Source: a virus (lineage: Duplodnaviria > Caudoviricetes). Taken from it: a DNA stretch of 64,000 nt. The DNA lies in the IMG/VR virus record IMGVR_UViG_3300035661_000005. One strand, 5' to 3'. The stretch's first letter is position 1, and each line of letters opens with the position of its first letter. The position numbers and the translations under genes were made by a program. Shown piece by piece: positions 17,329-63,276 of the stretch. The notes under the pieces are model-generated. The model had not been told where the DNA came from and searched no databases. It was given only the letters and a program-made list of their open reading frames with translations.

Positions 17329-19620
17329 GTGGCGAACGACTGGAAAGCCCTGGCTGTCACCATCCCCGGGAAGGACTACCTGGAGGACGTCCGGTCTACT
17401 CTGGAGACCCTCCTCACGTACCTGGACGTGGCGAAAGCCATCCTGGAGACGGTCAAGACCTTCCTGGTCGACTTCGGCAACCCCATCCGGGTCCTCGTGG
17501 AGCAGCTCGTCAAGCTGATCACCACGCTCATCGACAGCCTACGGCGCTCGGGCTTCTACGCCTGGTACCACGTCCCGAACCCCCTGCAGGATCCGAACTT
17601 CAAGCGCTTCCAGGGGGGCTTCCCGTCGTTCGTTCAGACGTGGAAGGGATCCCTCCTGGACGCCCAGGATCCGAACCGTCCGCAGCCTCAGAAGGGTTCG
17701 CTGACGGGTGGCTTCGTCATGATTGTGGCGGACGCCCAGGGGCCGGAGGCGCTCTTGGAGCAGGCTCGGACGATCCTGAAGTTCTTCGGGAAGGACTTCA
17801 CGCAGCCGGTATACCCGGCACCGGCCAACGTCAAGGTCGTCCCGGTGGGGGCGGCCGGTGACCCCGTCCTGTCCATCACGCAGCTCTTCAAGACCCAGAT
17901 CGAGTCCCTGGCGGTCGAATGGTCCCTCCCCGCAAACGTAGGGTCGGCGGACCCGTCGTTCGGGGGTCTTCCCGCGCAGCTCAGCTCTGAATTCTATCCG
18001 CCCAAGTGGCTGATCGAGCGCTCGTCCAAACCCCCGGCGGACAACGTCGACGTAGGGTATATCGGCGACTACAACCCGCCCAAGGTCGGCTACCTGACCA
18101 AGGTGGTCAACACCGGGAGCATCGATCCCCGGACGAATAAGCCGATCACGAAGACGGTGCGCATCAACGACGACACGGGCGAGCCGGTCGTCCTCTTCGA
18201 GAACGCGTACGTTGTCAGCGCCTCGTCGAACGCGCTATCCTTCGTCCTCGGGCAACTCGGGACCTTCCGGTACATCGACAAAGTCGACATCGACAAACCC
18301 TACTTCTACAGGGTCCGAGCGTTCAGCGGTACGCTTCGGATGGATGAGATCCACAACCGGGTCGATCTCCGGGAAGCGGACGTTGTGCAGGATGCGCGAC
18401 AGGCGGGCCTTTGGCAGCTCAAGTGGCCAAGCGCGAAAGCCGACTCCGTGGTCACCATGGGGAAACCCTCGGCCATCATCCGTGGGCGCATCTCGAAGGT
18501 GATCCCGACGTTCGACGTCGTCGAGGTCATCCGTTCGACCCTCCTCGCGGCCTACTCGCTCAACTTCCACATCCCGCTACCGCCGGGGGATCCGGTCCGC
18601 ATCCCATCCGGTCCGGATGCGGGGAAGCCCGTCCTCGACCCCGACGGGAACCCCGTCACGCAGCCCCAATTCGACGATAACGGCAACCCGATCCCCCCGT
18701 TGGACGACACGGCGATCGGCCGTGGGACGCTCTCGGCCATCTCCGGTGTCCTCGGGAGCAAGCAGTTCGCTCCCACGGTGACCCTGAATGGCCCGGTGAC
18801 GGGACCGTACGTGCCGAGCGAGGTCACAGGGCGCTACCCAGATCAGCCGTGGGTTGTCTTCAGCACGCGGTTCCAGGCGGCCCGGATGACCACGATGTAC
18901 GCCTCCCTGCTGTTCCAGGCGGGGGGCGGTGTCATCGAGGCGTGGCGAGCGCTCATGCAGGGCACGCTTCCGGCGGGCAAGCCGGAGACTGGTGGGACGC
19001 TCGCGTCGGTGACGACCTTGGAGCAGCTGGTCACGGCGCTCACGGCCACCGAGCCCTACGTGAAGCCGGGGAAAAAGCGGGCGCAGCCGTGGTCGATCCA
19101 GGTGCCCTCAGACACGGCGAAGACCTATGGGACGGCCTTCTACGACCCGATCGTCCGCAAGAACATCCTCGCGGCGGTCAACTTCCTGAAGACGTTGGGC
19201 TACCAAGGTGTCCCGCCCGACTGGGAGCGTGTAACGCTGCTTCAGGACGTGATCCCGTGGTCGGCGCAGATGCTCTACGACATGCTCGCCAAGATCAACG
19301 CGCTCCTCGACGCCTACAAGGGGGTCATGAGCGAGATCAAGGCGTTCATCGATCTCATTACCAGGAAGATCGACGCCCTGGAGAACTTCATCCAGTTCCT
19401 GGTCTCGATCCTCAATTTCGTGGAGTCCCTTGGCGGGGGCTTCTATCTTTTGAGCGTCTCGGGCCTGACGGGCGACGTGAATGACTGGTTCACGGCGATC
19501 GACAACGCCGGAGGGAAGAAGCCCACAAGTGGGCAGGGCGGGTACACGGCGGGTATCTGCATCGCCTACCTGGCGACCGACGTGTCGTCGTTCGAGACGG
19601 CCCTCAAGGCGATCTTTTGA
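17329..19620 (+). CDS. Hypothetical virion protein (763 aa)
   Basis: GTG start, typical codon bias, amphipathic helical N- and C-termini; operon context. Confidence 0.6.
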   Translation: MANDWKALAVTIPGKDYLEDVRSTLETLLTYLDVAKAILETVKTFLVDFGNPIRVLVEQLVKLITTLIDSLRRSGFYAWYHVPNPLQDPNFKRFQGGFPSFVQTWKGSLLDAQDPNRPQPQKGSLTGGFVMIVADAQGPEALLEQARTILKFFGKDFTQPVYPAPANVKVVPVGAAGDPVLSITQLFKTQIESLAVEWSLPANVGSADPSFGGLPAQLSSEFYPPKWLIERSSKPPADNVDVGYIGDYNPPKVGYLTKVVNTGSIDPRTNKPITKTVRINDDTGEPVVLFENAYVVSASSNALSFVLGQLGTFRYIDKVDIDKPYFYRVRAFSGTLRMDEIHNRVDLREADVVQDARQAGLWQLKWPSAKADSVVTMGKPSAIIRGRISKVIPTFDVVEVIRSTLLAAYSLNFHIPLPPGDPVRIPSGPDAGKPVLDPDGNPVTQPQFDDNGNPIPPLDDTAIGRGTLSAISGVLGSKQFAPTVTLNGPVTGPYVPSEVTGRYPDQPWVVFSTRFQAARMTTMYASLLFQAGGGVIEAWRALMQGTLPAGKPETGGTLASVTTLEQLVTALTATEPYVKPGKKRAQPWSIQVPSDTAKTYGTAFYDPIVRKNILAAVNFLKTLGYQGVPPDWERVTLLQDVIPWSAQMLYDMLAKINALLDAYKGVMSEIKAFIDLITRKIDALENFIQFLVSILNFVESLGGGFYLLSVSGLTGDVNDWFTAIDNAGGKKPTSGQGGYTAGICIAYLATDVSSFETALKAIF

Positions 19621-19638
19621 TGCGGAGGCTCTAGAGCG

Positions 19639-31124: not shown

Positions 31125-31202
31125 TTTTTCAGCCGTCCCACGTGGTCCCACAAGCCGGCGAGGTTCCACTTATCGGAGCCCCACTGTTGCAGAGGAGATC
31201 GC

Positions 31203-37461: not shown

Positions 37462-37510
37462 TCGGCGTGCAGAGCCTTTTATGGTCGGTCGTAGCTAGGA
37501 ACAAGATCAC

Positions 37511-49000: not shown

Positions 49001-50404
49001 TTCGATGGTCCGCTCTTCTGGGTCGAGATCGACGAGGACGGGGATTCGACCTTCATCCTCAACGCAGACGCCCTCGACCTCTCGAAGTCCACGGTCAACC
49101 CGATCGTGAGCTTCATGGACTCCACGGCGCACTTCGTCATCGAGGCGAGCATCTTCGGCTTCGATCGTGGATCCTTCGCCCCGGACGGTGAATTCCGCCT
49201 CGTCCTGACGCAGCCGACGGGTTCCGCTGGGATGCGTCAGCAGGCGAACACGGCCTACCGTTACAACGACGGGGTCCATCCGGGGAACATCGGGGTTCCG
49301 GTCTCGGGTCCGATCGCGGTCCTCCCGGGTCCGCTCGGTGGATCGGACTCGGCGCTCATCAACTACAGCCGGACGCCCTACGGTGGCGACGCCTGGGGTA
49401 GCCAGACCAACTACATCGACATCGGCTACGCGCCGGGGTCGCTGACGAGCGGTATCGCCTACCTGTTCGAGGCCAACAAGCCGCAGGAGGCCAACCTCAC
49501 GCGGCCGAACCAGAAGGCGCTGGAAGTCCTGGCCTCGGTCAGCTTCAGCACGACGGCTGGGACGGGGCGCATCAGTGGAGTCGCCGACTCCACTGGCATG
49601 GCCCTCAACCCGATCTCGAACCCTGGGGCCGAGGATCTGACCTTCTACCCCCCTACGAGTCCAGTGGCGCCTCGGCCCCGGTTCGCCATGGGAGCGCTGG
49701 TCAACGAATTCTACCAGGTGCCGATCACCTCGAAGTACCTCGGCTGCACGGAGCGCCTCCCCCTCGGCGGCCTCTGGCGGGACAAGGACTTCAAGGGCGG
49801 CTCGTTCACCACGATGCCCGGCCCGCTGGTGAAGGGGATGGAGCGCTCGTTCGGTGCGGGTACCGGCCTGGCTCGCACCTCGACCTTGGAGGCGTTCGAT
49901 GCGGTTCCGATCCCGGACCACGGGACGGGTGAGCCGGGCGTCCTCGTCCATGTGGACGGCGAGTCGGGCAACTACTCGCCCCCCGTGGTCAACTTCCGGA
50001 CGTTCCGTGGCGGGTCGGCCTTCTCGGCAGCGGGTCCGAACCCGGGTGGGGAGGTGCTCGAAACCTCCGGCTGGAGCTTCCCGATCAACGACGTCAATCA
50101 GACCCTGTCGGCGACGGCCTACCTGGTGCGCAACACGGTCACCAACGTCGGCCTGACGGAGGTCTCGGCGGGCGATGAGCTGATGCTCCTGATCATCACG
50201 ACCGTTCAGCCGCCCAGTGACATGCACCTCATGGGACGGCAGCCGCTCACGGTCCGGTGCTCGACCAACGGGTTCGGGGAGGGTTACTCGGCGGCCGATC
50301 TCTACCGCATCGAGGGTCACCCGCTCGTCCGGAACAACGTCCACATGCAGGTCAACCCGAGCGCGATCGTTCTGACGCGAAACCCCGAGGTGGTGCAGCC
50401 ATGA
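46025..50404 (+). CDS. Virion structural / tail fibre-associated protein (1459 aa, paralog of 32676..35240)
   Basis: LQQGKPPMDAEFN, RVQLQYRIRV, GDPGLWRAGDG, GTVDGYVYAVP and RPDGLF motifs. Confidence 0.65.
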   Translation: MNNLGPDTSRVLDPTATGFLEVILQQGKPPMDAEFNLLQEIATGQVQAAVLRGVLSGWLGNETGLPSDFVTNPSWSNWFQFGQQRSGERASVKWAIVNGWLIPVAGTRTGSPPGAPDDTDTYNKIALDPPPANSGDFRIDFIFLETWLARVAPNPSTANKPNASAIYRYGNVEGGATFLPDNLIDPALGFETSQRVQLQYRIRVVKGLVGFTGYPDGFDPAIVRAKGAYDPTNPDTTTAYTFQNMRQTLGDPGLWRAGDGTVNNLGTVDGYVYAVPIAAVFRRNGVAWNGDPSQNLNGSFNRDPSAVARALNPKIFASSVTIASVMTATSTSVTLSTATNLPFPATPATPVTVRIGDEIVQYSSIVGTTMNISARGQNGTSAEAHQVGAPVKILSGRPDGLFADQVAGTDILDLRHAVNPNGFDYQAMLESNLDKLLKGELRTNWKRSGAGPQGPFVAYQDKITAGAVSLGVTKLDAPDKIRTIFSDASCLQPIEIVAFPNGTTSPADVGVAWGLRMSIIHTPVIGGRFSPGDTLVIPVNQLKAGLPGGDADQVRWMIEGFEMRVDGNSQPIDPSTYALTPTTPTSSDPLTITLQAGFPTTTRQLYIKAYAIYGAGRGLSRRPDAVHSIALLSPSADILSNPVGTPSTNRGMKISWVPLWSKFAGSGVGRGLPTVSEAYVDAASKTVVLQPLQRIEMPAEFITMDGTAANIDPGASPVFTNNAGSSAGSNVLTDMTVNFITAGVTPGMAVIISNGPQPGRYVVSTLPSSVTANTLTLDRPLYATTSGLSYAIYTGQGLMPLRKRDGVTAKWAQTDPLNLFSGNLEAATPYPAATKNIYVTLPRHLVPGWGEYKLPILRAGTSIFAEGVNYMLLSQTGGTYTDNDRNFVPYAASGVSFACFSTLDFNPPGTNPAAYNAAFGPVGGKTYAGIRKYTDTRGLMRQGLELPPFYGVARLFAVYEANDYKVNGSAYNDVTRVATGSPTSAKNLLRQNFDGPLFWVEIDEDGDSTFILNADALDLSKSTVNPIVSFMDSTAHFVIEASIFGFDRGSFAPDGEFRLVLTQPTGSAGMRQQANTAYRYNDGVHPGNIGVPVSGPIAVLPGPLGGSDSALINYSRTPYGGDAWGSQTNYIDIGYAPGSLTSGIAYLFEANKPQEANLTRPNQKALEVLASVSFSTTAGTGRISGVADSTGMALNPISNPGAEDLTFYPPTSPVAPRPRFAMGALVNEFYQVPITSKYLGCTERLPLGGLWRDKDFKGGSFTTMPGPLVKGMERSFGAGTGLARTSTLEAFDAVPIPDHGTGEPGVLVHVDGESGNYSPPVVNFRTFRGGSAFSAAGPNPGGEVLETSGWSFPINDVNQTLSATAYLVRNTVTNVGLTEVSAGDELMLLIITTVQPPSDMHLMGRQPLTVRCSTNGFGEGYSAADLYRIEGHPLVRNNVHMQVNPSAIVLTRNPEVVQP

Positions 50405-50601
50405 TCCGCTCGATGACCTACCTGGACCTGACGCCCGAGCAGCGCAAGAAGGGGGCCAGCGTCGCACGGGAGCGTCTCCGCGGGGTGCTCGCCAATCCGT
50501 TCCTCACGGAGGAGCAGCGGCTGCATGTCCACGACGAGATGCACCGGCTCGACAAGTGGGAGAAGGGGCAGCCCCTCCCACCGAAGCCCTCGGTTGGGTG
50601 A
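50401..50601 (+). CDS. Small hypothetical protein (66 aa)
   Basis: ATGA overlap with the previous stop; MIRSMTYLDLTPEQRKK...KPSVG fills the gap before the holin leader. Confidence 0.55.
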   Translation: MIRSMTYLDLTPEQRKKGASVARERLRGVLANPFLTEEQRLHVHDEMHRLDKWEKGQPLPPKPSVG

Positions 50602-50640
50602 GTCCTCCTATGGAGGACTCTGGTAAAGGAGTCCTCCATG
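50600..50640 (+). promoter_or_regulatory. Mutually exclusive hairpins over the holin RBS and start codon
   Basis: GAGTCCTCC (50600-50608) and GAGTCCTCCAT (50629-50639) are both reverse complements of the central ATGGAGGACTC (50610-50620). Confidence 0.7.
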
Positions 50641-51048
50641 CCGACGCTCGACAAGGGATTAGAGATCTTCATCAACTGGCAGACGTTCGTCTTCTGCCTC
50701 GGTATCTACTTCGCCACGCAGATCGTCCGGACCCTGGTCGAGGCGTTCGTTCCGAACGTCAAGGTGAAGGGTACGAAGACGTACCACGCGTGGAACGAGG
50801 CCTTCCTGCCGCTCGGCCCGTTCGGGACGGGGATGCTCATCGCGCTCCTGGCGAAGAAGTTCCCGTGGCCGATGCCGATCGCGGATGCCATGTCAGCGAA
50901 GCTGATGTACGGCCTCATCTGCGGCGGTGCCTCGGGCTTCATGTACGGCCGGTTCCGCGCTTTCATCCGCATCCGGACCGAGAGCAAGGATGATGGGACT
51001 GCCATCGCGGATCCCGTCTCCGTGGACAACCAACCCCCGGGGAAGTGA
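50638..51048 (+). CDS. Holin-like membrane protein
   Basis: 136 aa with about three hydrophobic segments, a GLICGGASGFMY motif and a charged C-terminus. AAGGAG RBS; located at the end of the tail module. Confidence 0.6.
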   Translation: MPTLDKGLEIFINWQTFVFCLGIYFATQIVRTLVEAFVPNVKVKGTKTYHAWNEAFLPLGPFGTGMLIALLAKKFPWPMPIADAMSAKLMYGLICGGASGFMYGRFRAFIRIRTESKDDGTAIADPVSVDNQPPGK

Positions 51049-51587
51049 TGGCGGACCAAGATCGGACGCAGACCTTCTGGCAGGCCGTGTGGGCCAAGCT
51101 CAAGCAGTGGGGGCACTGGGCGGCGCTGAAGCTAGTGGCGCCTGGTGTCGCTCTCGTGGTCATTCTGGTGGCGGTCCTGCTCGTGTCGGTCGGCTTCAAG
51201 GAGCTGCAGATCGGCGGTATCCTCGGCAAGCTCTTCGGCAAGAAACCCTCGGACAAGGCCATCGACACGGCGAACACGATCCCGCCGCACCGGGTCGACG
51301 AGAAGGGGAAGCTGATCCCGGCTGGGACGCCCGATTCGAAGGGTACCACGCAGGCGGTGGTCGTTCCCATCCAGGAGCCGGGCATCTTCTCGAACCCCGA
51401 CACGGTGAAGTTCACCCCGCCGGGGAAGGATGAGCCGGTCGAGGTCCAGCTCCCCGATGGCGTCAAGAACAAGGACGTCTCGCAGGTCGTTATCGTTCAC
51501 CCGGACATGGTCGTGGTGACTGTGAAGGACAACTCGGGGATCCCGGCGTCCCACGTGGATGACCTGCTCAAGAAGTACGGAGGCTGA
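51048..51587 (+). CDS. N-terminally anchored membrane protein (possible inner-membrane spanin-like component)
   Basis: Basic amphipathic N-terminus, a single TM segment (LVAPGVALVVILVAVLLVSVGF) and a hydrophilic C-domain. ATG at 51048 overlaps the holin stop. Confidence 0.5.
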   Translation: MADQDRTQTFWQAVWAKLKQWGHWAALKLVAPGVALVVILVAVLLVSVGFKELQIGGILGKLFGKKPSDKAIDTANTIPPHRVDEKGKLIPAGTPDSKGTTQAVVVPIQEPGIFSNPDTVKFTPPGKDEPVEVQLPDGVKNKDVSQVVIVHPDMVVVTVKDNSGIPASHVDDLLKKYGG

Positions 51588-51589
51588 AC

Positions 51590-52186
51590 GTGAAGCGTAC
51601 GATCCTACTTCTCGGGCTACTTCTCCCCTCCGTGGCAGCGGCGCAGACGACTTGTCCGGCGGGGTCAACGTGCGTCCCGGCCGACGACATGAGGGTGTTC
51701 GTGCAGCTGCTGAAGGACCAGAAGTGCCGTGCGGAGACGGCGCCGATCTTCAAGCTCGACCCCATCTCGATCGTCACGGACAAGGATGGGCGCGTCTACG
51801 GGTCCGGGAGCGGACCGCAGCCGTACAAGCTCAAGATGTCGTGGTGCAACTACGAGGTTGAGGGCAAGGGACAGGTCGACATCGCCGTGGCGAAGCGTGA
51901 GCCGGAGACCTCCGGGTTCCGCTTCCGTCCCAAGGCGGCCATCGGCTACCTGCCGGTCACAGCGTACAAGCAGTCGGACGGGTACGCGGGGCTCGATGCC
52001 GGCGTCCTGATCGAGCCGGCGTACGTCTCGTGGTTCAACTTCAACGCCTACGTGGGCTTCCGCTCGGTCGGCGGGGGCTTCGGGTTCGACCTGACGAGGA
52101 ACATGGGCGCCTACGTGGGCTACGCGATCACGTGGGGCACCTGGCAATCCAACCTACACGGGGCGATCTCGTTCGCTCTCTGGTGA
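51590..52186 (+). CDS. Exported protein with a Cys-containing N-domain and C-terminal amphipathic beta-strands (possible outer-membrane protein)
   Basis: Signal peptide MKRTILLLGLLLPSVAAA, four Cys residues and alternating aromatic/Gly strands ending in GAISFALW. Confidence 0.55.
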   Translation: MKRTILLLGLLLPSVAAAQTTCPAGSTCVPADDMRVFVQLLKDQKCRAETAPIFKLDPISIVTDKDGRVYGSGSGPQPYKLKMSWCNYEVEGKGQVDIAVAKREPETSGFRFRPKAAIGYLPVTAYKQSDGYAGLDAGVLIEPAYVSWFNFNAYVGFRSVGGGFGFDLTRNMGAYVGYAITWGTWQSNLHGAISFALW

Positions 52187-52230
52187 GAGCCTGGCGTACG
52201 ATCGTCGTTCCGTCACGGGGTCCTCGGATC

Positions 52231-52298
52231 CTGCGACGCCACGTGAGTGCCCTCGCAGATGGGCCAGTCCTTTCGGCCCATAGCGGTGTAAGGGAGGG
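52231..52298 (+). promoter_or_regulatory. Structured leader of the helicase gene: hairpin plus candidate H-type pseudoknot covering the SD
   Basis: CTGCGA/TCGCAG stem with an inner CAC-GTGA-GTG hairpin, and an ATGGGCC/GGCCCAT stem whose loop TCCTTT is complementary to AAGGGA at 52290-52295. Confidence 0.45.
52284..52292 (+). promoter_or_regulatory. CGGTGTA motif, candidate phage promoter element (copy upstream of the SNF2 helicase)
   Basis: The same 7-mer starts 18-30 nt upstream of four replication-module start codons. Confidence 0.5.
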
Positions 52299-52301
52299 CC
52301 A

Positions 52302-55300
52302 ATGCCTCCCAAAGTGTTGACGCCCGAGCTGCTCGTCACGTACGACCAGCTCAAGAAGGTTCGGGAATCCAAGACGGTTGCGCTCAAGCCGACCCCGATG
52401 CTTCGCGAAGAGATCGCGGGGTTCAACGGCAAACCGCAGCCGCTCAAGCTCCGCTACTACCAGTCGCAGGGCATCTTCCACCTGCTGCTGATGAAGCGCA
52501 TGGTTCTCGGAGACGGGACGGGCCTCGGGAAGTGTGTGACGGGCGACACCTTGCTCGCCACCGATAAGGGCCTCATCCCCATCTTGTCCCTCGCTCCCGC
52601 GGAGGACTTGCAGCCGAACACCTTCTACGAGCCGGCTTTCCCCGTGAGGGTCAGGATCGGGAACGAGTACGTTCCCGTCCATCGGTTCTACTGGAACGGT
52701 GAGGTGCGTACATACAAGGTGCGAACCAGGGATGGGTTTGAGGTCACGGGCAGCGCCAATCATCCGATCCTGGTCCGAGGGCCGGATGGGGAGAGCTTTT
52801 GCAAGCTCCCTGAGGTGGAGCCTGTAGAGAACTACGCCTGTATCGAGCGGCGGTCTTCCTTCCCGCTCTCGGTTCCTCCTATCCCGTTCGAGCCGAAGGT
52901 GGCGCCCAACGCAACGCGTTACACGGTCCCGAGCCACATCACGCCCGAACTGGCGCGGCTGCTCGGATACATCGTGGCCGCGGGGACGGTGACCTCGAAG
53001 TATCGAACGACCATCACGCAGCACCTGAACATGAACTCCGAAGCACACACGGACATCAGGGGGCTTCTTCAGACCATCTTCGGTTGGTCAAATGACACGA
53101 CCAACGCGGACCGTGACAAGAGCATCGAGGTCACGAGCCTCTGGCTCCGGCAGTACTTCGAAGCGTGTGGGGTGGGTTACACCACCGCACACACGAAGTC
53201 TGTCCCGTGGTGCGTTCAGCAGGGGACACGGGAAGTTGTGGCGGGGTTCCTTCGAGGGCTTTTCGAGGGCGATGGATCGGTGGTGTCGGGCGGGGTCGAG
53301 TTCTCTACCGCTTCGGAGCGGCTGGGAAAGGAGGTGCAGATCATGCTCCTCCAGTTCGGAATCGTGGCGACCCGGAAGTTCGTCGATGAGTACGACCACA
53401 CCTACTGGTGGCTCACCCTGTTCGGGGAGGATGCCAAGCTCTTCCACGACCAGATCGGGTTCGCCTCTCGTCGGAAACAGGACGCCCTCACGCAGTCCTT
53501 GCCCGCTGAGCGGAACCCGAACAAGGACGTGGTGCCTCACGCTCGGGAACTCGTGGAGCAGGTGCGGGCGGCCCTGATGGCGAAGTTGGATGTCTCTGGC
53601 TCGAACAACCAGCGACAGGGGTCTGGGCTCAAGCAGTTGGGGGACAATTTTCAGTCCAAGCTGAAGCATGTCCGGTCGGGTAACCGGAACCCCACCTACG
53701 CTTTCTTGCAGGAGGTGTATGCGGCCTGTGAGACGGCGGGGATTCTGGGGGATCCTGCCGTACAGGAGCTGTATGACCTTCTCCGCAGCCATTACTACTA
53801 CGACCCTATCGTCGAAGTCATCGAAGCCGGAACCCAGCCGGTGATGGACATCGAGGTCGATGACCCCCGGCACGCTTTCACGGCAAACGGGTTGGTCAAC
53901 CACAACACGTGCCAGGCGATCGGCGCCCTGTGCTACCTCTGGGCGAAGGAGACGGGCAACCGGGTCATCATCGTCACCCCGAAGTCCGCCCTACGTCAGT
54001 GGGACACAGAGATCCACCGCTTCGCCACGGGGATCAAGACGTACATCGTCTCGGGCACGCTGGAGGAGCGGAAAGCGGTCTACGAGGCGTGGGCGAAGCA
54101 TCCGGAGGACCACCCGAAGAAGCCGGTCCTCTTGGTCAACTACCACCTGCTCGTGCGCGACTGGGACCACGGGGGCGGGCTCAAGAAGGACCCGAAGAAC
54201 CCGAGGGACAAGGGCACGGTCGTCCCGGGGCTCGTGAACAGCCTGACGATGGGCATGCCGAACATCGTGACCATCTACGATGAGGCCACGGCGTTCAAGA
54301 ATTCGTCGACGAAGACGTGGCAGGTGGCGGCGCAGCTGTCGTTGCGGTCGCATCGTTGCTACGGGCTGACGGCGACCCTCCTCAAGAACAACCTCATGGA
54401 GGGCTTCTCGATCTACAAGGCCATCGTGCCCGACCTGTTCGGCACGAAGACCGGCTTCATCCGGGACTACTGCGTGACGCGCGACCTGCAGGTCAGCGGC
54501 CGACGCATCCCCCTCGTGGTCGGCTACCGCAACCTGCAGACGTTCCGCAACACGATCGACCCGTTCTTCCTGGGGAGGTCCAAGCACACGGTCAGCGACG
54601 AGCTACCGACCCTCATCACGAAGGACATGCTCTGCGAGCTGTCCCCCGCCGAGGATGCCAAGTACACCGAGGCCCTGACGGGGATCATCGAGCTGGGCGA
54701 TGGTGAGGTCAAGGACTACGAGGAGCACAAGGCGTTCGTCAGCCTGATCTACTGCCAACAGGCGGTGAATTCGCTGACGATGCTCAAGTTCGACTCCGGG
54801 CAGGAATTCGAGACGGGGCTCTTCAGCGACGAGGTGCTCAAGGTCGACAAGCTCGGTGCCAAAGAGCAGGCCCTCTTCGACCTCATCAACGATGAGCTGT
54901 CGGACGAGAAGGTCATCGTCTACACGCGCTTCGCGTCCCTCGTCCCGCGTCTCCAGCACATCCTCGCCGAGGCCAAGATCAAGTCCGTCCGGATCACCGG
55001 CAAGGACAACGACATCGCGCGCAAGAAGGCCCAGGAGGCGTTCCAGAACCTGGAGTCCGATACGAAGGTCATCTTCATCACGGACGCCGGGTCGGAGGCC
55101 ATCAACCTCCAGGCGGCGAGCGCGATGATCTTCTACGACGCGCCGTGGAGCTGGGGCAACTACGTCCAGCTGCTGGGTCGCCCGATCCGTATCGGCAGCC
55201 CGCACCAGCACATCGTTGTCTACCACCTCATCGCCGAGCGTCCGGGGGATACGAAGAAGGCCCGCAAGACGATCGACCACCATGTTTTGGAGATGCTCGA

Positions 55301-55424
55301 CAAGAAGAAGGGCCTGATCGATCGCGTTCTCGGCGAGGCGGCGGTTGGGGCCTTGGACTTCGAGAAGGGTTCGGTTACCAAGGATCTCGTGCGTAGGCTC
55401 CAGGGCAAGGGCGGTGACGAATGA
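52302..55424 (+). CDS. SNF2-family (SF2) DNA helicase, intein-containing
   Basis: LGDGTGLGK|T Walker A (split by the intein), IYDEA, TAT, SEAINLQAAS..IFYD and QLLGRPIRIG motifs. Confidence 0.9.
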   Translation: MPPKVLTPELLVTYDQLKKVRESKTVALKPTPMLREEIAGFNGKPQPLKLRYYQSQGIFHLLLMKRMVLGDGTGLGKCVTGDTLLATDKGLIPILSLAPAEDLQPNTFYEPAFPVRVRIGNEYVPVHRFYWNGEVRTYKVRTRDGFEVTGSANHPILVRGPDGESFCKLPEVEPVENYACIERRSSFPLSVPPIPFEPKVAPNATRYTVPSHITPELARLLGYIVAAGTVTSKYRTTITQHLNMNSEAHTDIRGLLQTIFGWSNDTTNADRDKSIEVTSLWLRQYFEACGVGYTTAHTKSVPWCVQQGTREVVAGFLRGLFEGDGSVVSGGVEFSTASERLGKEVQIMLLQFGIVATRKFVDEYDHTYWWLTLFGEDAKLFHDQIGFASRRKQDALTQSLPAERNPNKDVVPHARELVEQVRAALMAKLDVSGSNNQRQGSGLKQLGDNFQSKLKHVRSGNRNPTYAFLQEVYAACETAGILGDPAVQELYDLLRSHYYYDPIVEVIEAGTQPVMDIEVDDPRHAFTANGLVNHNTCQAIGALCYLWAKETGNRVIIVTPKSALRQWDTEIHRFATGIKTYIVSGTLEERKAVYEAWAKHPEDHPKKPVLLVNYHLLVRDWDHGGGLKKDPKNPRDKGTVVPGLVNSLTMGMPNIVTIYDEATAFKNSSTKTWQVAAQLSLRSHRCYGLTATLLKNNLMEGFSIYKAIVPDLFGTKTGFIRDYCVTRDLQVSGRRIPLVVGYRNLQTFRNTIDPFFLGRSKHTVSDELPTLITKDMLCELSPAEDAKYTEALTGIIELGDGEVKDYEEHKAFVSLIYCQQAVNSLTMLKFDSGQEFETGLFSDEVLKVDKLGAKEQALFDLINDELSDEKVIVYTRFASLVPRLQHILAEAKIKSVRITGKDNDIARKKAQEAFQNLESDTKVIFITDAGSEAINLQAASAMIFYDAPWSWGNYVQLLGRPIRIGSPHQHIVVYHLIAERPGDTKKARKTIDHHVLEMLDKKKGLIDRVLGEAAVGALDFEKGSVTKDLVRRLQGKGGDE
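52533..53906 (+). mobile_element. Intein (458 aa) with a LAGLIDADG endonuclease region, inserted in helicase Walker A
   Basis: Begins CVTGDT after GLGK and ends ANGLVNHN before Thr. It has the SANH block B and the LLGYIVAAG and FLRGLFEGDG motifs. Confidence 0.92.
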
Positions 55425-55684
55425 TGCGCGAAGCCATCTTCCGGGAATTCGAGATCGAGCGCGACAAGCAGGACCGCATGTGGGGCGGAGAGGCCCACGA
55501 CGCACACCACACGGCACACGACTGGATCGCCTACCTCGTGAAGCACGTCGGCAAGGCGGTCCACTGGCCGTGGACGGTCGAGCGCTTCCGGCACCAGATG
55601 GTCATCATCGGCGCGCTCTCCGTGGCGATCATCGAGTGGTGTGACGCGCAGAGGACGGTTGGGGATCGTCCCCCCTCGGTGTAA
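55421..55684 (+). CDS. Small MazG-like / all-alpha NTP-pyrophosphatase-like protein
   Basis: ERDKQDRMWG...DWIAYL...GKA...RHQMVIIGALSVAIIE follows the ER.RQ..KWG...W...L...GE...EL.QVAAVAVA.IE pattern. Confidence 0.5.
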   Translation: MMREAIFREFEIERDKQDRMWGGEAHDAHHTAHDWIAYLVKHVGKAVHWPWTVERFRHQMVIIGALSVAIIEWCDAQRTVGDRPPSV

Positions 55685-55693
55685 GAGGGGGAC
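55668..55693 (+). promoter_or_regulatory. SD-sequestering hairpin whose loop carries the GGTGTAA motif
   Basis: GTCCCCCCTC (55668-55677) pairs with GAGGGGGAC (55685-55693) with one bulged C; the ATG is at 55697. Confidence 0.55.
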
Positions 55694-55696
55694 TGC

Positions 55697-56539
55697 ATGA
55701 CCGAGATCGGCTGCGACCAGTGCAATCACACGGGGTTCCTACCCGTACCGGGGGATGACTCCCGGGTGCAGCAGTGCATCTGTTCCTACGCCCGTGCGCT
55801 CAAGGCGCACCTGGGACCGGAGATCGCTGCTGCACCGATCATTCTCAAGAGCCCCCTCTACGTGGCGGGTGGGAAGGGTGAGCCGGCCAAGATCGATCGC
55901 ACCCAGGACAACCTGTTCATCAAGGTCTACTGGTCCGATCTCCTGCCGCATTTGAAGTGGGCACTGACCTGCAAAGGTCCGATGTTCCGCTACCGTATCG
56001 TGACGGACGAGCGGCTGAAGACGGTCTACCTCGGCTCCGAGGACTACCGTGCGCGAGCCAAAAGCAAGCGGGACGACATCACGACCTTCAACAGCGTGGG
56101 CGACCTGATCGGGCCGGAATACGACATGGTCATCGTTCGGCTCGGATTCCTCGGGTACAAGAACGTCGCCATGCCGGGCATCCTCAAGGAGGCCCTCATG
56201 CTGCGGGAGTCCGCGTTGAAGCCCACGTGGCTCATCGAGGAGCCTGCAAGCATCTACGGTTTCGGCCACTTTTCGTACAGCGAGGACACGGCGGCATACA
56301 TTGACCGCCTCTTCGAGGTCATCAACCTCGTGGACGAGAAGCGGACGCCCGAAGCTCCGCGTGGCGTGGAGCCCGTGGAAGACGTGACCATGGAGGATGA
56401 CGAGCCGAGGCCGCAGATCGTACAACCCCCTCAGCCCAGGTTCACGAGTCCCAAGATCGATCCCGTGGAGTTTGCCGTGCCTGAAGGAAGCGGTAGGAAG
56501 TCCGGCTGGAAGAAGAAGGGCGGAGGGGGTCCGGTATGA
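55697..56539 (+). CDS. DnaC/IstB-like helicase-loader-like protein with degenerate Walker motifs
   Basis: N-terminal CDQCNHTG...CIC zinc finger and loader-like spacing. It lies directly upstream of the DnaB-like helicase and has no GKT or DDLG. Confidence 0.55.
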   Translation: MTEIGCDQCNHTGFLPVPGDDSRVQQCICSYARALKAHLGPEIAAAPIILKSPLYVAGGKGEPAKIDRTQDNLFIKVYWSDLLPHLKWALTCKGPMFRYRIVTDERLKTVYLGSEDYRARAKSKRDDITTFNSVGDLIGPEYDMVIVRLGFLGYKNVAMPGILKEALMLRESALKPTWLIEEPASIYGFGHFSYSEDTAAYIDRLFEVINLVDEKRTPEAPRGVEPVEDVTMEDDEPRPQIVQPPQPRFTSPKIDPVEFAVPEGSGRKSGWKKKGGGGPV

Positions 56540-58008: not shown

Positions 58009-58643
58009 TGGCCCGGGACTTCCTCGGGGAAGCCGAACGCGAAGCCACCCAGAGCGCATCGTTCCGTCGCTGGGTGGCCCAGCGGATCGCCGCTATCCAC
58101 GACAGGGTATCAGCGGGCGACGTGCTGGCCCGTAACGGCGTCCACCTGAAGTACGGCGGCCACCGGCCCGAACAGCTCTCCTGCCCCTTCCACGGGACCG
58201 ACAACCGCCCCAGCGCCCGATACTTCCCAGACGGTGAGAGTCCCGCCCATATCTGGTGCTACGTCTGTAAGGAGCGGTGGGACAGCATCACCCTTTGGCG
58301 GAAGTTCAACCAGTTCGAGGGGCCTTTCACTCGGCTGCTGTTCGACATCGAGCGGGCCTTCGGCATCGACACGCCCGAGGCGCCTACTCAGGACGAAGGC
58401 TTCGAGGATGATGGACCGGACGCGGAGGTCTTGCAGCTGATGGAAATCTGCGAGCGCCGCCTCCGTGGAGCGCGAGCCTCGTTCGACCTGCGAGCGTTCC
58501 TCACGGTCGGAAGCATCCTCGACCGGCTATCCTACCGACTCGAAACGCAGAAGATCACGGTCAAGGCGGCCATGCTCACTCTCCACCGGGTCCTTGACAA
58601 GATCGGGGAGAAGGAGCGCGCTTGTCCCGGCGGATCAAACTGA
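58008..58643 (+). CDS. Stand-alone primase CHC2-type zinc-binding domain protein
   Basis: CPFHGTDNRPSA...WCYVC, followed by a helical C-terminus with no TOPRIM motifs. Confidence 0.7.
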   Translation: MARDFLGEAEREATQSASFRRWVAQRIAAIHDRVSAGDVLARNGVHLKYGGHRPEQLSCPFHGTDNRPSARYFPDGESPAHIWCYVCKERWDSITLWRKFNQFEGPFTRLLFDIERAFGIDTPEAPTQDEGFEDDGPDAEVLQLMEICERRLRGARASFDLRAFLTVGSILDRLSYRLETQKITVKAAMLTLHRVLDKIGEKERACPGGSN

Positions 58644-59038
58644 AGACCAAGGAGCTGGGGGACCTACACCTGATGCTGATCTTCAGCACGGGCGGGGTCT
58701 GGGAACCTGCCTGGGCAGCGTTGAAGGACCACCCGTACGCCGAGTACCTCACCCGGACGAGCACGGAGGTCGTCCACCATGCGCTACACGGCTGGACGCT
58801 GCCGCTCGTGAGGGCTTTGGGGCCGAGTCCCGCCATTGCTCTGCACAAGTTGTCCCCAGACGCCAAACAGTGCGACCTCTGGGACCACTGCATTTTCTAC
58901 GACAAGCGACACTGCCTGCCGAACGCGCGAAAAATGCCGCACTGCTTTCAGCCGCGCGGCTTGTCCCCCGACTTGGGCTACCTGGTGATCAGCCTTTGGC
59001 GGGAGTCGGTGTATATCGTGGTCGAGGAGACCCCATGA
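58622..59038 (+). CDS. Hypothetical Cys-cluster protein (138 aa, TTG start uncertain)
   Basis: AGGAG upstream of the TTG; QCDLWDHC...HC...HCF; the stop overlaps the polymerase ATG. Confidence 0.55.
   Translation: MSRRIKLKTKELGDLHLMLIFSTGGVWEPAWAALKDHPYAEYLTRTSTEVVHHALHGWTLPLVRALGPSPAIALHKLSPDAKQCDLWDHCIFYDKRHCLPNARKMPHCFQPRGLSPDLGYLVISLWRESVYIVVEETP
59007..59014 (+). promoter_or_regulatory. CGGTGTA motif upstream of the DNA polymerase
   Basis: CGGTGTAT starts 28 nt before the ATG at 59035. Confidence 0.45.
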
Positions 59039-62000
59039 GTGAGACCGAAGACTTTGACGAGATGCTTGCAGCCCTAGAGGCCGTGCAGCCTCCGGCGGAA
59101 ACCCGGTCCACTGCCGTGCCCGACACGGATCCCGTCAACTCCTACCCGGACCCGACTGGGGAACCGATCGAGCCGGATGGCCCCGTGGCGGCTCCCCCTC
59201 CCATGGCTGCGCCAGTGACGGCTCCCGTGGCTACGGACGATGCTGAGGACTTCATGTCCGGCATGGGTCTCCAGGCGGAGGGTCAGCAGGACCTACGCAA
59301 GCCCTGGATGAAGCACCACAGGTTCGTGCTCGTCCAGAAGATCGAGGAGGTCCGCAAGCTCATCGACGAGGCCATCGCCAGCGGCAAGTGCAGCCTCGAC
59401 CTGGAGTGTGAGGGGCTGGACAACCGCATCATCTACAACGCCCAGGGCAAGATGGAGACGGTCCACAAGATCGTCGGTTACTGCATCGCCTATGGGGACG
59501 CGAAGGCCGGGTACTACATTCCGGTCCGGCATAAGCCGTTCGATGGCAGTCCGGGGATGAACGTCGAGCCGGTGGCCGAGGTCGAGGCAGAGATTCGTCG
59601 CCTCTGCCTAGCGGCGCAGCCGACGCCGAAGCCCGGCCAGGAGGATCTCCTCGCCTTCAAGGAATTCGAGACACCCCCGCGGGTCGTCATCGATTTCTGG
59701 AATGCCAAGTTCGACCAGGAGTTTCTGTTCCCGGTCACGGGGATCGACTTCTGGCACCCGGACTCGTTCGAGGATGGGCTCCTAGCGTTCTTCACGATTT
59801 TCTCGGGAGATCACGCGCTCGGCCTCAAGCCGAAGGCGGCACAGAAGCTCCGCGATCCGGACGGTAACCCGTACGTGATGATCGAGATCAAGGATCTGTT
59901 TCCGAACAGGCGGAAGATCAACTTCGCCTCCCTGTCGCCGGACGAGCCGAACGTCGTCCCCTACGCGTGCTCGGACGCCATCTGCACCAGGCTCCTCTGC
60001 GCGCTCCCCGACCTCTTGCCGGTCATCCGGGCGGACAAGCGTGGGCGGGCGTTCACCTACCGGCTGGAGAAGCAGGTCAGCCAGGTCGTGCGCGTCATGG
60101 AGCGCAACCGGGTCAGGGTGAATCGTCAGAGGGTCATCGAGCTACGGGACATCCACCGTAAGGGTCGGGAGCGCTACCGGGAGATGATCGTGGCCCTGGC
60201 GCGTAGCAAGGGCTTCATGGAATTCGAGCCGGGCTCTCCAGCCCAGCTCAGCGAATTCCTCTTCTCCGAGCGGGGGCTGAACATCAACCCGAAGCCGGAG
60301 AAGAACGCCTCGGGGGCCTACAAGACCGACTTCGACACACTCGACGGCATCACCAAGGAGCTAGGGGACAACGCGCCCGAGGTGCTCAAGTGGGTCGTGA
60401 GCTACCGGGAAGAGGACAAGGTGCTCGGGACCTACCTCGAAAGCCTCTCGACGAACCCGGACGCGAACGACGAGCTACGTTTCAACTTCAAGCAGACGGG
60501 CGCTGCGACGGGGCGCTTCTCGGCACCGGCGGGTGAACCCGAGCACGGCTTCTCGGGCGTTCCGATCCACGGGATGCCGTCGACGTCCGATCTCCGGCAG
60601 GTCTTCGAGGCCCGCATCGGCTACACGATGGTCAAATGCGACTACGCCGGCCAGGAGCTGCGTATCGTCACGAACCTCTCGAACGAGCCCGTCTGGGTCA
60701 AGGAATTCCTCGAAGGAACCGGCGACCTGCACACGATCACGGCCCGAGCCTTCTACAACAAGCAGGAGGTCAGCAAGGACGAGCGCAAGGCGGGGAAGGT
60801 CGCCAACTTCGCCCTCGTCTACGGTGGCGGACCCCAGGCCATCATGCGAGCGACCGGCTGCGACAAGGTCGAGGGGCAGCGGCGCAAGCAAGCCTTCGAC
60901 AAGGCGGTCCCGACCTTCGCCAAGTGGGTCAAGGGGCAGCACGATAAGGTCAAGAAAGATCTGGGCGTCTACACGGCTTTCGGCCGCTGGGTGTCGATCC
61001 CGGATGCGTCGATCAGGGTCGGGCAGCTCGACCAGAACGGCAAGCCCGTCGGATCCGACGAGGACATCCGACGCATCCGTGCGGCGTGTGAGCGCCACGC
61101 GACCAATTACCCGATCCAGGGGTGCCTTCAGCCGTCTGCTAGGGTACTCACGACCCAAGGGTACAAGACGGTCGCACAGCTACGCGAAGAGGGGGGCACT
61201 GGGTGGACGTGGACGGGCTCGAACTGGGCCGAGTTTGAGATCCTGGACAAGGGGGAGTGGCAGTACGCCGAGATCGAACTGGTCGATGGCACGATTATCC
61301 CCTGTGATACCCGGCACAAACTCCTCGTCGTCACGGAGAGTGGCTACGAGTGGCGGGAGTACGAGGCGCTTCGTCCCGAGGATCAGGTGGCAACCTCCCT
61401 GGCAACGCCCGTTCAATTCCCGGGTGAGCCCTTGCCTCCTCTGGAGGTGGGAGAGAAGTCCAACTTGAGCCCCTTGTTGCCGGAAGGGTGTGAGGCCGAT
61501 CTCTGGTTCTGGCTGGGGTACTATTACGGGGATGGTTGGAAGGGAGACGAGAAGGGCTGCCTCACGTACTGTTTCGGGGATCACGAAACGTCGATGATGG
61601 ATCGTTGTGTCGGTTTTTGGTCTCATTGGGGCTTGAACCCGAAGATCAAGGAAAACACGCATCAGCCCGCCGAGAAGGTTTCGACCCGGTTTGATGTGGA
61701 GGTGCGGAGCGTAGACTTGGCCCGCTGGCTCTCGAAGCTGGGCATCAACCAGTCGGACGCCCACACGAAACGACTCCCGGATCGGGTCTTCTGCGAGCCC
61801 TTGCTCTATCGGCAAGCCTTCATCAAGGGGCTCATGGCGTCAGACGGGCACCGGACGTCGGACGGCAACCCCTACCACCTCCATCTGTATCAGGCAGATT
61901 TGCTTCGAGACGTGAAGCTGCTGCTGCGTACCGTGGGAGTGGAATCGTCGCTCCACGGCCCTTACCACCAGACGGACAAGAACGGGTTGGAGACCACCAG

Positions 62001-63276
62001 CTACAGGCTGGACATCAACCAGCGGATGTTTCGTGTTGCCGTGGATGGTACGGCCGCTCGTATGCCCAAGTTCCACGACCAGCGTACGCCGCCGTTCCTG
62101 GTTCGAGCCCTCATTGAAAAGTACCCGCATGAGAAGCCGTCGAGCTTCCCGACCAAAACCCTCTACAATCTCTACCTTCGCATGAAGGCGGGGGGCGCGA
62201 CGACGCTCAACATGTTCCAGCACATGCTGGACACGATGGGCTATCGGATCGACCAGCCGGTCTACGGGTACAAGCGGCTCAAGGCGAAACGCGAGCTTTC
62301 AACCAAAGGGCCGACCTACACGCTGTCGGTCAACGATCCTCGACATCGGTTCGAGGCTGAGGGTGTCATCACCAAGAACTCTGGCGCGGACATCATGAAG
62401 ATCGCGATGGTCCTCCTCCACAAGGACTTCTACCGGCGCGGCTGGCTGAAGAACTGGACGGGCGGTAACCCGGAACAGCAGGACATCGTTCGGATGCTCC
62501 TGTCCGTTCACGACGAGTTGGTGTTCGAGATCCGCCACGATCAGGTCATCCACGCGACGCCGGTCATCGTCGACAAGATGGAGCTGCCGACGAGGATGGC
62601 GCTCCCACCGTTCAGCCCGCAGTGGCGGGTGCCGCTCGTCACCGAGCCTCTCGTCGGACCCACGTGGGGGACGGGCTACCCATGCGAGCGGGCCAAGGCG
62701 GACCACAAGCTCAAGGAGGGGGAGGTCATCCACAACGGGTTCCTCTACGGGACGATCCGCACGGTCGACCTGGGCAAGGAGGATCCTGGAGCTGGGGAGG
62801 TCGAGCACTGGCGGGATGAGAAGTCCAAGAAGCTGAAGATCCGCTTCTTGGAGCCCCAGTGGCTCCTCCAGGCGGGCGGGAGCTTGCCCGAACCCATCCG
62901 GGAGGCGCCGCCCCCGGCTACTCCGCCAGCTACTCCGCCGCCGGGTGCCCCTGCGGCGGCTCCAGCGGCCCCTGTCGCGGCGTCCCCGGCACCGTCTACG
63001 CCCTCGATCCCTCCGCCTACGTCAGCGGCCCCAGCGGCCCCGGAGCAGGTCGTGGTCATCCGGCTGACGCTCCTCAACGGGCGCACGGTTCGGCAGGTCA
63101 TGGGCATCGTGACGTCGAACGCGGACCCGAAGGGCAAGCTCCTGCACCTGACGGATGCCACGGGGACCACGCTGATCGACCCTCAGCAACACCGGCTGCG
63201 GATCGATGCCGAGAAGGTTGCGAAAGCTCTTCAGGAGCTGCACATCTCGGACGGACGGATCGGGGTGGTTGTATGA
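59035..63276 (+). CDS. polA: Family A DNA polymerase with 3'-5' exonuclease, intein and C-terminal extension (1413 aa precursor)
   Basis: Exo motifs SLDLE, NAKFD and YACSD; polymerase motifs TGRFS, DYAGQELR, RKAGKVANFALVYG, NYPIQG|SGAD and VHDEL. The start is assigned to ATG 59035 (GAGGAG RBS, ATGA overlap). Confidence 0.93.
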   Translation: MSETEDFDEMLAALEAVQPPAETRSTAVPDTDPVNSYPDPTGEPIEPDGPVAAPPPMAAPVTAPVATDDAEDFMSGMGLQAEGQQDLRKPWMKHHRFVLVQKIEEVRKLIDEAIASGKCSLDLECEGLDNRIIYNAQGKMETVHKIVGYCIAYGDAKAGYYIPVRHKPFDGSPGMNVEPVAEVEAEIRRLCLAAQPTPKPGQEDLLAFKEFETPPRVVIDFWNAKFDQEFLFPVTGIDFWHPDSFEDGLLAFFTIFSGDHALGLKPKAAQKLRDPDGNPYVMIEIKDLFPNRRKINFASLSPDEPNVVPYACSDAICTRLLCALPDLLPVIRADKRGRAFTYRLEKQVSQVVRVMERNRVRVNRQRVIELRDIHRKGRERYREMIVALARSKGFMEFEPGSPAQLSEFLFSERGLNINPKPEKNASGAYKTDFDTLDGITKELGDNAPEVLKWVVSYREEDKVLGTYLESLSTNPDANDELRFNFKQTGAATGRFSAPAGEPEHGFSGVPIHGMPSTSDLRQVFEARIGYTMVKCDYAGQELRIVTNLSNEPVWVKEFLEGTGDLHTITARAFYNKQEVSKDERKAGKVANFALVYGGGPQAIMRATGCDKVEGQRRKQAFDKAVPTFAKWVKGQHDKVKKDLGVYTAFGRWVSIPDASIRVGQLDQNGKPVGSDEDIRRIRAACERHATNYPIQGCLQPSARVLTTQGYKTVAQLREEGGTGWTWTGSNWAEFEILDKGEWQYAEIELVDGTIIPCDTRHKLLVVTESGYEWREYEALRPEDQVATSLATPVQFPGEPLPPLEVGEKSNLSPLLPEGCEADLWFWLGYYYGDGWKGDEKGCLTYCFGDHETSMMDRCVGFWSHWGLNPKIKENTHQPAEKVSTRFDVEVRSVDLARWLSKLGINQSDAHTKRLPDRVFCEPLLYRQAFIKGLMASDGHRTSDGNPYHLHLYQADLLRDVKLLLRTVGVESSLHGPYHQTDKNGLETTSYRLDINQRMFRVAVDGTAARMPKFHDQRTPPFLVRALIEKYPHEKPSSFPTKTLYNLYLRMKAGGATTLNMFQHMLDTMGYRIDQPVYGYKRLKAKRELSTKGPTYTLSVNDPRHRFEAEGVITKNSGADIMKIAMVLLHKDFYRRGWLKNWTGGNPEQQDIVRMLLSVHDELVFEIRHDQVIHATPVIVDKMELPTRMALPPFSPQWRVPLVTEPLVGPTWGTGYPCERAKADHKLKEGEVIHNGFLYGTIRTVDLGKEDPGAGEVEHWRDEKSKKLKIRFLEPQWLLQAGGSLPEPIREAPPPATPPATPPPGAPAAAPAAPVAASPAPSTPSIPPPTSAAPAAPEQVVVIRLTLLNGRTVRQVMGIVTSNADPKGKLLHLTDATGTTLIDPQQHRLRIDAEKVAKALQELHISDGRIGVVV
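61123..62379 (+). mobile_element. Intein (419 aa) with a LAGLIDADG endonuclease in the DNA polymerase
   Basis: Starts CLQPSARV after PIQG and ends EGVITKN before Ser; contains LGYYYGDG and FIKGLMASDG motifs. Confidence 0.9.

Follow-up and report, generated by a model that had tools for sequence, protein, structure and literature searches.

A conserved box and an evolutionarily maintained ribosome-binding-site hairpin upstream of a holin-like gene in very large uncultivated phages

The stretch of phage DNA analysed here, referred to as the window, is 64,000 nt long and carries an array of about 50 kb on one strand, in which giant genes for baseplate and tail-fibre-like proteins are followed by genes for three small envelope proteins and then for an SNF2 helicase, DnaB and PolA. 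No DNA or protein match to the window was found in INPHARED, and no relative of the holin-like gene described below was found in prokaryote genome contigs. The relatives that were recovered are metagenomic contigs from sediment and microbial mats. For five IMG/VR records (G001 to G005, corresponding to loci L013, L016, L017, L014 and L001, respectively), the CheckV completeness figures, for example 85% for 406,734 bases and 23% for 111,677 bases, point to genomes of approximately 470-480 kb. The window is therefore placed in a clade of uncultivated phages with very large genomes. Gene order was kept in all of the relatives, namely a gene of approximately 1450 aa, a small ORF, a short spacer, the holin-like gene and a gene for a single-TM protein of approximately 180 aa. 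The genes for the SNF2 helicase (52302-55424) and a family A DNA polymerase (58465-63276) contain LAGLIDADG-type insertions (inteins). Several relatives also have an AdoMet decarboxylase-family gene (PF02675) just 5' of the SNF2 helicase gene, and none was noted at this place in the window.

The gene downstream of the spacer had been taken for a holin gene in the initial annotation, and this is accepted here in part. Its 136-aa product has two strong hydrophobic segments in a hydropathy scan, a third, glycine-rich segment (approximately residues 87-106) that was judged by eye, and a core that is conserved across homologues. No direct match was found in Pfam, PHROG or NCBIfam, and a language-model lead for this protein was weak. 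A profile made from 21 homologues matched 544 clusters, and 10 of 86 distant profile relatives matched the PHROG holin families phrog_1299 or phrog_1129. No endolysin was recognisable beside the gene, in the window or in the relatives. The small size, the TM segments and the charged tail fit a class I-like holin, and 'holin-like' is a plausible working label and is used as such. The next protein has a single TM segment and is syntenic in all relatives (Table 1), and the 198-aa protein that follows looks like a small outer-membrane beta-barrel. These two are unusual partners for a lysis cassette in which no endolysin is recognisable.

Table 1. Features of the spacer, the adjoining genes and the three copies of the conserved box in the window
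Feature	Position	Strand	Description
Upstream 66-aa ORF	50401..50601	+	ATG 50401-50403, stop TGA 50599-50601
Hairpin A	50600..50620	+	9 bp, loop TAT; -16.0 kcal/mol (predicted); 5' arm and loop overlap the conserved box
Conserved box TCCTCCTATGG	50603..50613	+	TAT 50609-50611, 29 nt upstream of ATG
Hairpin B	50609..50640	+	13 bp including 2 U-G, 11 perfect; covers SD GGAG and AUG
Shine-Dalgarno (SD) AAGGAG	50626..50631	+	6 nt 5' of start codon
Holin-like gene	50638..51048	+	136 aa, hydrophobic segments, charged C-terminal tail
179-aa protein	51048..51587	+	One N-terminal TM segment; syntenic in all relatives
198-aa secreted protein	51590..52186	+	Signal peptide (no lipobox), four Cys, C-terminal ...ISFALW
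Second box copy TCCACTTATCG	31165..31175	+	78-nt gap before gene 31203; TAT 32 nt before ATG
Third box copy GCCTTTTATGG	37474..37484	+	49-nt gap before 2618-aa gene 37511; TAT 31 nt before ATG

The 66-aa ORF upstream of the spacer starts within an ATGA, which it shares with the end of the 1459-aa tail-fibre-like gene. A Pfam search with this ORF gave no significant match. Small ORFs of 62-168 aa occupy the equivalent place in the relatives, and the 66-aa ORF itself is conserved in L001. The gap to the holin-like gene is 36 nt, and no terminator-like site was found between the upstream operon and this gene (49800-52400 searched). Hairpins A and B were considered as terminators and this was ruled out, as there is no intrinsic terminator in 49800-52400.

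The initial annotation had described the spacer as a central arm flanked by two copies of its reverse complement, and all coordinates and sequences of this three-arm layout were verified. In hairpin A, 50612-50620 is perfectly complementary to 50600-50608 (GAGTCCTCC), and the 5' arm of this hairpin does overlap the TGA of the upstream ORF (50599-50601), as had been claimed. The core of hairpin B consists of 50610-50620 (ATGGAGGACTC), the exact reverse complement of 50629-50639, with a loop of 8 nt (11 bp, B11), and RNAfold lengthens this to 13 bp (B13) by adding terminal U-G wobbles (50609-50621 paired with 50628-50640). Hairpin B had been said to bury most of the SD and the AT of the start codon. 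Three of the last four bases of the SD (GGAG) are within the 11-bp core and all four are in the 3' arm of B13, which pairs GGAG and the entire AUG (50638-50640). The spacer sequence was identical in three samples (four DNA runs examined).

All folding energies reported here are predictions. They were -16.0 kcal/mol for hairpin A alone, -19.2 for B11 and -22.2 for B13. When a 50-nt context was folded, the best total was -22.3 kcal/mol with A enforced versus -23.1 for the B state, and in longer contexts the corresponding values were -44.2 versus -46.1 and -75.3 versus -78.7 kcal/mol. The two states differ by 0.8-3.4 kcal/mol depending on the context, and to call them nearly iso-energetic is fair as far as the folding model goes; at equilibrium, the B state makes up 95-99.5% of the predicted ensemble. 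The claim that hairpin A leaves the ribosome-binding site (RBS) free did not quite hold, as with A enforced the SD and AUG are placed in a weak hairpin (50621-50625 with 50639-50643). On the nascent chain, A is predicted to fold before B. A transcript beginning at 50612 is predicted still to adopt B (-21.0 kcal/mol), and one beginning near 50619-50621 to have an open leader.

The 5' part of the spacer contains an 11-nt box with the consensus TCYWYYTATSG, which was found in all 21 distinct loci of the holin-like gene family. TC was conserved in 20 loci, TAT in 20 and the AT of TAT in all 21, and the base after TAT was G in nine, C in nine, T in two and A in one. The box adjoins the stop codon of the preceding gene in the family loci and is 26-35 nt from the start codon, except in L015/L016, where it is 17 nt from a GTG start. 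In the window, it spans most of the 5' arm of hairpin A, the loop of A and the start of the central arm. A small ORF starting at ATG 50610 was also considered and was rejected, because boxes of the TATC type have no ATG there.

The box recurs in the window. A position weight matrix (PWM) was built from the relatives only, with the window left out, and among 128,000 positions (both strands of the window) it ranked 31164 first, 50602 second and 37473 sixth. These three sites (Table 1) are all intergenic, with TAT 29-32 nt upstream of an ATG, and intergenic DNA makes up 3% of the window. The recurrence was detected solely with the family-derived pattern or PWM; as plain strings, neither GAGTCCTCC nor the exact box is over-represented in the window. 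The second box is conserved upstream of orthologues of its gene in L049, L051 and L052 and partly in L050, and the third is kept as GCTTTTATCG in L054 and L055 and is not kept in L053. A box-like sequence at 19612-19624 (ATCTTTTGATGCG, a GAT variant with PWM rank 3), which overlaps the stop codon of gene 17329-19620 and is 20 nt upstream of ATG 19639, is possibly a fourth copy. At the second box (31162-31180), GGUUCC and GGAGCC around TAT can pair to form 6 bp with TAT in the loop, which echoes hairpin A, and the orthologous site in L049 can form a matching 6-bp hairpin.

A second short motif, CGGTGTA, was noted 18-28 nt upstream of starts in the replication module, at 52284, 55677, 59007, 63707 and 63809, where the starts are those of the SNF2 helicase gene at 52302, the gene at 55697 and the polymerase region. 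Only two other copies occur on the plus strand, both within structural genes. CGGTGTA is a candidate for a second promoter class, distinct from TCYWYYTATSG. The SD of gene 55697 is itself in a hairpin (55668-55694) in which GUCCCCCCUC pairs with this SD (GAGGGGGAC), and the loop carries GGTGTAA; the RBS is hidden (minimum free energy -22.2 kcal/mol for 51 nt, z = -1.4). This second motif-in-hairpin arrangement hints that the design is used more than once by this phage. At 52291-52310, codons 2-3 of the SNF2 helicase gene contain CCUCCC, which pairs with the SD of this gene (GGGAGG), and the AUG is in the loop.

Short class-specific motifs 20-35 nt upstream of start codons are the usual signature of phage promoters, and two module-specific short motifs at a fixed distance from start codons have the look of phage promoter classes. 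From its sequence and distribution, the TCYWYYTATSG box is most likely a late-class promoter-like signal tied to the starts of structural-module genes. Alternatively, it could serve in the RNA, marking some late genes for processing or for binding by a translational regulator, with the hairpin as a separate translational attenuator. The box is found on the coding strand only, at a fixed distance from start codons (about 29-36 nt) and next to the stop codon of the preceding gene, which would suit such a role, as would the absence of a sigma-70-type promoter from 49800-52400 and of a recognisable phage RNA polymerase (RNAP). Neither a T7-like RNAP signature nor a multisubunit RNAP (Rpb2_6 match or DFDGD-coding pattern) was found in five related records, which are incomplete (one is 85% complete) and in which divergent enzymes could have escaped. 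However, a different class-specific motif for the replication module is what phage promoters usually show, the gaps that contain the box are nearly the only sizeable ones in the 50-kb same-strand array, and one relative's record includes sigma-factor genes. An RNA-level role for the box is therefore considered improbable.

To examine hairpin B in the relatives, 29 loci were gathered, of which 21 were distinct over the 60 nt upstream of the start, and pairing tests were performed with 20. The 5' segment that follows TAT and the 3' segment that ends at AUG were paired within a locus (own arms) or across loci (foreign arms). Mean duplex energies were -11.5 kcal/mol for own arms and -8.1 for foreign arms (permutation p<5e-5, 20 loci), and the run of pairs extending outward from TAT:AUG averaged 5.1 versus at most 1.3 in slid registers (p=1e-4); both p-values overstate independence, as the loci share phylogeny. 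In seven loci, the own 3' arm was the best of the 20 partners. In the TATG clade (10 loci with TATG, TATA or TATT boxes), a subset whose choice and alignment were made after the hairpins had been inspected, an 8-pair helix starting from TAT:AUG was 90% paired, compared with 38-60% for slid controls. Five of these eight pairs had double-sided changes, which was matched by none of 500 shuffles, and the TAT:AUG register was exact in all 10 sequences. The own-arm preference, the register test and the double-sided changes together show the covariation that the initial annotation had proposed to look for in relatives, and, on these comparisons of sequences, hairpin B is evolutionarily maintained with compensatory changes and so under selection. 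An Rfam search of 50300-50900 gave no match at E up to 1. The possibility that B functions as a DNA palindrome or operator was disfavoured, because many G-U cells point to RNA.

The loci with boxes of the TATC type do not have the helix anchored at TAT. Most of them have offset hairpins over the AUG or SD (L010, L012, L014, L022 and L006/L007), with the 5' arm lying 8-10 nt past TAT in L014 and L022, and the local hairpins in L002, L003 and L005 are only weak. The median predicted cost of opening the RBS was 10.2 kcal/mol in the holin-like family compared with 5.3 in other genes that have the box (p=6e-4). The two other genes with the box in the window have the lowest opening costs among 28 gene starts.

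A further explanation for hairpin B is that it has no function, its complementarity having arisen from chance, GC-rich composition or local duplication (GAGTCCTCC is present twice as a direct repeat). Hairpin B is the sole perfect inverted repeat of at least 11 nt with a loop of at least 3 nt within the 64-kb window, and approximately 0.6 such repeats are expected by chance (estimated as 64,000 positions x 38 loop sizes x 4^-11). With a threshold of 10 nt, there are 21 short inverted repeats in the window. Comparable opening costs are found at many gene starts in the window, where the start at 50638 is no outlier (rank 6 of 28), which we attribute to compensation by hairpin A. Relative to dinucleotide shuffles, the 50-nt element had a folding z of -2.9, and the 121-nt context reached only -1.3. 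The significance of B thus comes from its placement over the RBS in one of few intergenic gaps and from its conservation. With an own-arm preference and compensatory changes across relatives whose stems are quite different, pairing that is lost in slid registers and a hairpin placed exactly over the RBS, an absence of function is the least probable of the explanations considered here.

Hairpin A was not conserved when the same check for covariation in relatives was applied to it. It is strong only in the window (1 of 21 loci, z = -4.2), weak in L008 (1 of 21) and absent from the other 19, including the closest relative (77% protein identity). As hairpin A is not conserved, an N4-type DNA-hairpin promoter was rejected for it. 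The conserved box makes up most of the 5' arm and loop of A, which is therefore perhaps in part a by-product of the box. We read it either as a lineage-specific tuning of leakiness or as a by-product of a pyrimidine-rich box placed opposite a purine-rich arm.

These data bear on the original proposal of a bistable switch, in which ribosomes stopping at the UGA (50599-50601) would mask the 5' arm of A, so that B forms and the holin is off, and RNA on which the upstream ORF is untranslated would fold A and open the RBS. The two helices are mutually exclusive, as the central arm is common to both, and in the window they are close in predicted energy. A is predicted to fold first on the nascent chain, and the stop codon is 6-15 nt upstream of TAT in most relatives. 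However, A is found in so few loci, B dominates the predicted equilibrium, the SD and AUG are still partly paired in the A state, and the 5' arm of A is mostly the box, which is present for another reason. The predicted cost of opening the RBS is 7-11 kcal/mol in the window, where A is present, and 14-21 in close relatives without A, and because A reduces the cost in this way, a ribosome-toggled switch is possible for this single phage in terms of modelled energies. It is not a conserved device, and we consider it very unlikely to explain the element.

The reading we prefer, tentatively and at a little less than an even chance, is that a promoter sits within the DNA that specifies the 5' strand of a hairpin sequestering the RBS, an arrangement of the T4 gene e type for which we infer the promoter function, the start position and the on/off logic. 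Two signals would be superimposed in the 36-nt spacer, the 11-nt box and an RNA stem-loop, with the 5' strand of the stem-loop starting at the TAT of the box and its 3' strand made of the SD tail and the AUG. The box would be a short promoter that has no -35 element and is used by a phage-directed transcription apparatus. Read-through mRNA from the upstream structural operon would carry the 5' strand, the RBS would be locked and no membrane protein made. In transcripts starting at the box, past the greater part of the 5' strand, the leader would be open and approximately 18-20 nt long, with a well-spaced SD. The output of the holin-like gene would then be set by its own promoter and be uncoupled from heavy transcription of the structural genes. 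In the window, A would offer the central arm another partner, so that the RBS of read-through RNA could be opened at a lower net cost.

The 5' strand extends 13 nt from the TAT, about as far as a start site lies from its -10-like element. The exact TAT:AUG register suggests that the selected RNA contains TAT, i.e. that it is the read-through RNA. The initial annotation had also suggested a late transcript that starts within the element. A conserved and recurring promoter-like box at its 5' part supports this portion of the proposal, and the position of the start is one that we infer.

Some observations go against the T4-like reading. L015/L016, where TAT is 17 nt from the GTG, fit a start at TAT better than one 10 nt downstream, judging from their sequences. 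In L014 and L022, part of the 5' arm would still be present in a transcript that starts approximately 10 nt downstream. Three relatives (L002, L003 and L005) have only weak hairpins, and the upstream genes are of the late, structural type, so that the early/late contrast of T4 is not evident. The box could also work at the RNA level, as discussed above.

The main rival, which we regard as unlikely overall yet ahead of the other alternatives, places the start at the G or C that follows TAT, so that each mRNA would open with a 10-bp 5'-terminal hairpin (-21 kcal/mol). This hairpin would stabilize the RNA and constitutively throttle a toxic membrane protein, with expression either leaky or dependent on a late phage factor that opens the stem (compare Com of phage Mu). 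The predicted folding of B in a transcript from 50612 is compatible with this, the sequence after TAT is G-rich in the TATG clade, the geometry of L015/L016, where GGTGG separates the box from the start codon, agrees with initiation at the box, and only under this model would L014 and L022 keep their offset hairpins whole. The TAT(G/C)G core also resembles the late consensus of phiKZ, in which the last G is the start site (PMC4666361). Against it are the T7-like and multisubunit RNAP signatures that were not found in the five related records, although divergent enzymes could have escaped, and the exact TAT:AUG register in the 10 TATG-clade sequences, which suggests that the selected RNA contains TAT. 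In addition, a lock of 19-21 kcal/mol on every mRNA would leave the gene nearly silent unless an activator exists. A more far-reaching version, in which this clade of phages of approximately 470-480 kb would have a new class of promoters with the start at TAT and no recognisable RNAP genes, and in which 5'-hairpin mRNA and a phage opening factor would form an RNA-level lysis timer, is a speculative one to which we attach little probability.

To our knowledge, almost nothing is known of lysis timing or the organization of late transcription in giant uncultivated phages. This locus supplies a conserved, testable cis-element that combines a candidate late promoter motif with an RBS lock on a candidate holin gene. 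If confirmed, the box could be used to annotate the starts of late operons throughout this phage clade. The locus also illustrates that a 'bistable switch' seen in a single genome can be largely the by-product of an overlapping conserved signal.

Hairpins at the start regions of phage genes are known in several systems. In phage lambda, the sdi structure splits ribosomes between two in-frame starts (Met1-Lys2-Met3) and thereby sets the holin:antiholin ratio. The sdi stem-loop is at the 5' end of the S holin gene, where it affects initiation and, through it, the timing of lysis (PMC3359269). The candidate holin gene described here likewise has an RNA stem-loop at its 5' end, but this one occludes the RBS and offers no choice between starts. 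The analogy to sdi made in the initial annotation fails in this respect, as there is a single start (MPTLDKG...) and the dual-start motif was found in none of the 21 homologues.

In phage Mu, the mom transcript has a translation-inhibiting stem that is opened by Com, a small RNA-binding activator. Here too, the start of a late gene is concealed in a hairpin, and a protein could bind the specific sequence at the 5' foot of this hairpin; however, no Com-like factor was identified, and the leaders of two other genes with the box are open.

With respect to the box, the T7 promoter has the sequence TATA|GGG, with the start directly after TATA. The late promoters of phiKZ consist of 5'-TATG-3' with the last G as +1 and are read by the non-virion RNAP (PMC4666361). 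The box shares with them a very short TAT(G) core near the presumed start and the lack of a -35 element, and both phages are giant. It differs in that C is accepted in place of G and the upstream pyrimidine-rich TCYWYY is also conserved, and RNAP beta/beta'-like genes were not detected in the (incomplete) records of the relatives.

The closest counterpart is gene e of T4, for which an RBS-sequestering hairpin was reportedly described by McPheeters et al. in 1986. There, the hairpin silences read-through RNA, and the late promoters are in the DNA that encodes the 5' strand, so that late transcripts do not include it; the same design is found in I-TevI and in mobE of Aeh1 (reviewed in PMC3014915). 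As in gene e, a candidate lysis-related gene is located behind other genes with no terminator between them, a stable stem-loop (13 bp, predicted -22.2 kcal/mol) pairs the SD and the start codon, the 5' strand is the site of a conserved short motif that has no -35 element, and the structure is kept among related phages as the sequence of the stem varies. In contrast, the motif is TCYWYYTATSG and not TATAAATA, with its promoter role putative here, the upstream genes are late structural genes where those of T4 are early, and the target is holin-like and not an endolysin or, as for I-TevI, a homing endonuclease. The phage, unlike T4, is uncultivated, GC-rich and giant. If the reading is correct, the strategy of gene e extends to an unrelated lineage, which would suggest convergent control of premature lysis. 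T4 gene e, I-TevI and mobE already show this design, and the novelty here lies in the motif, in the clade of phages and in a target that is holin-like.
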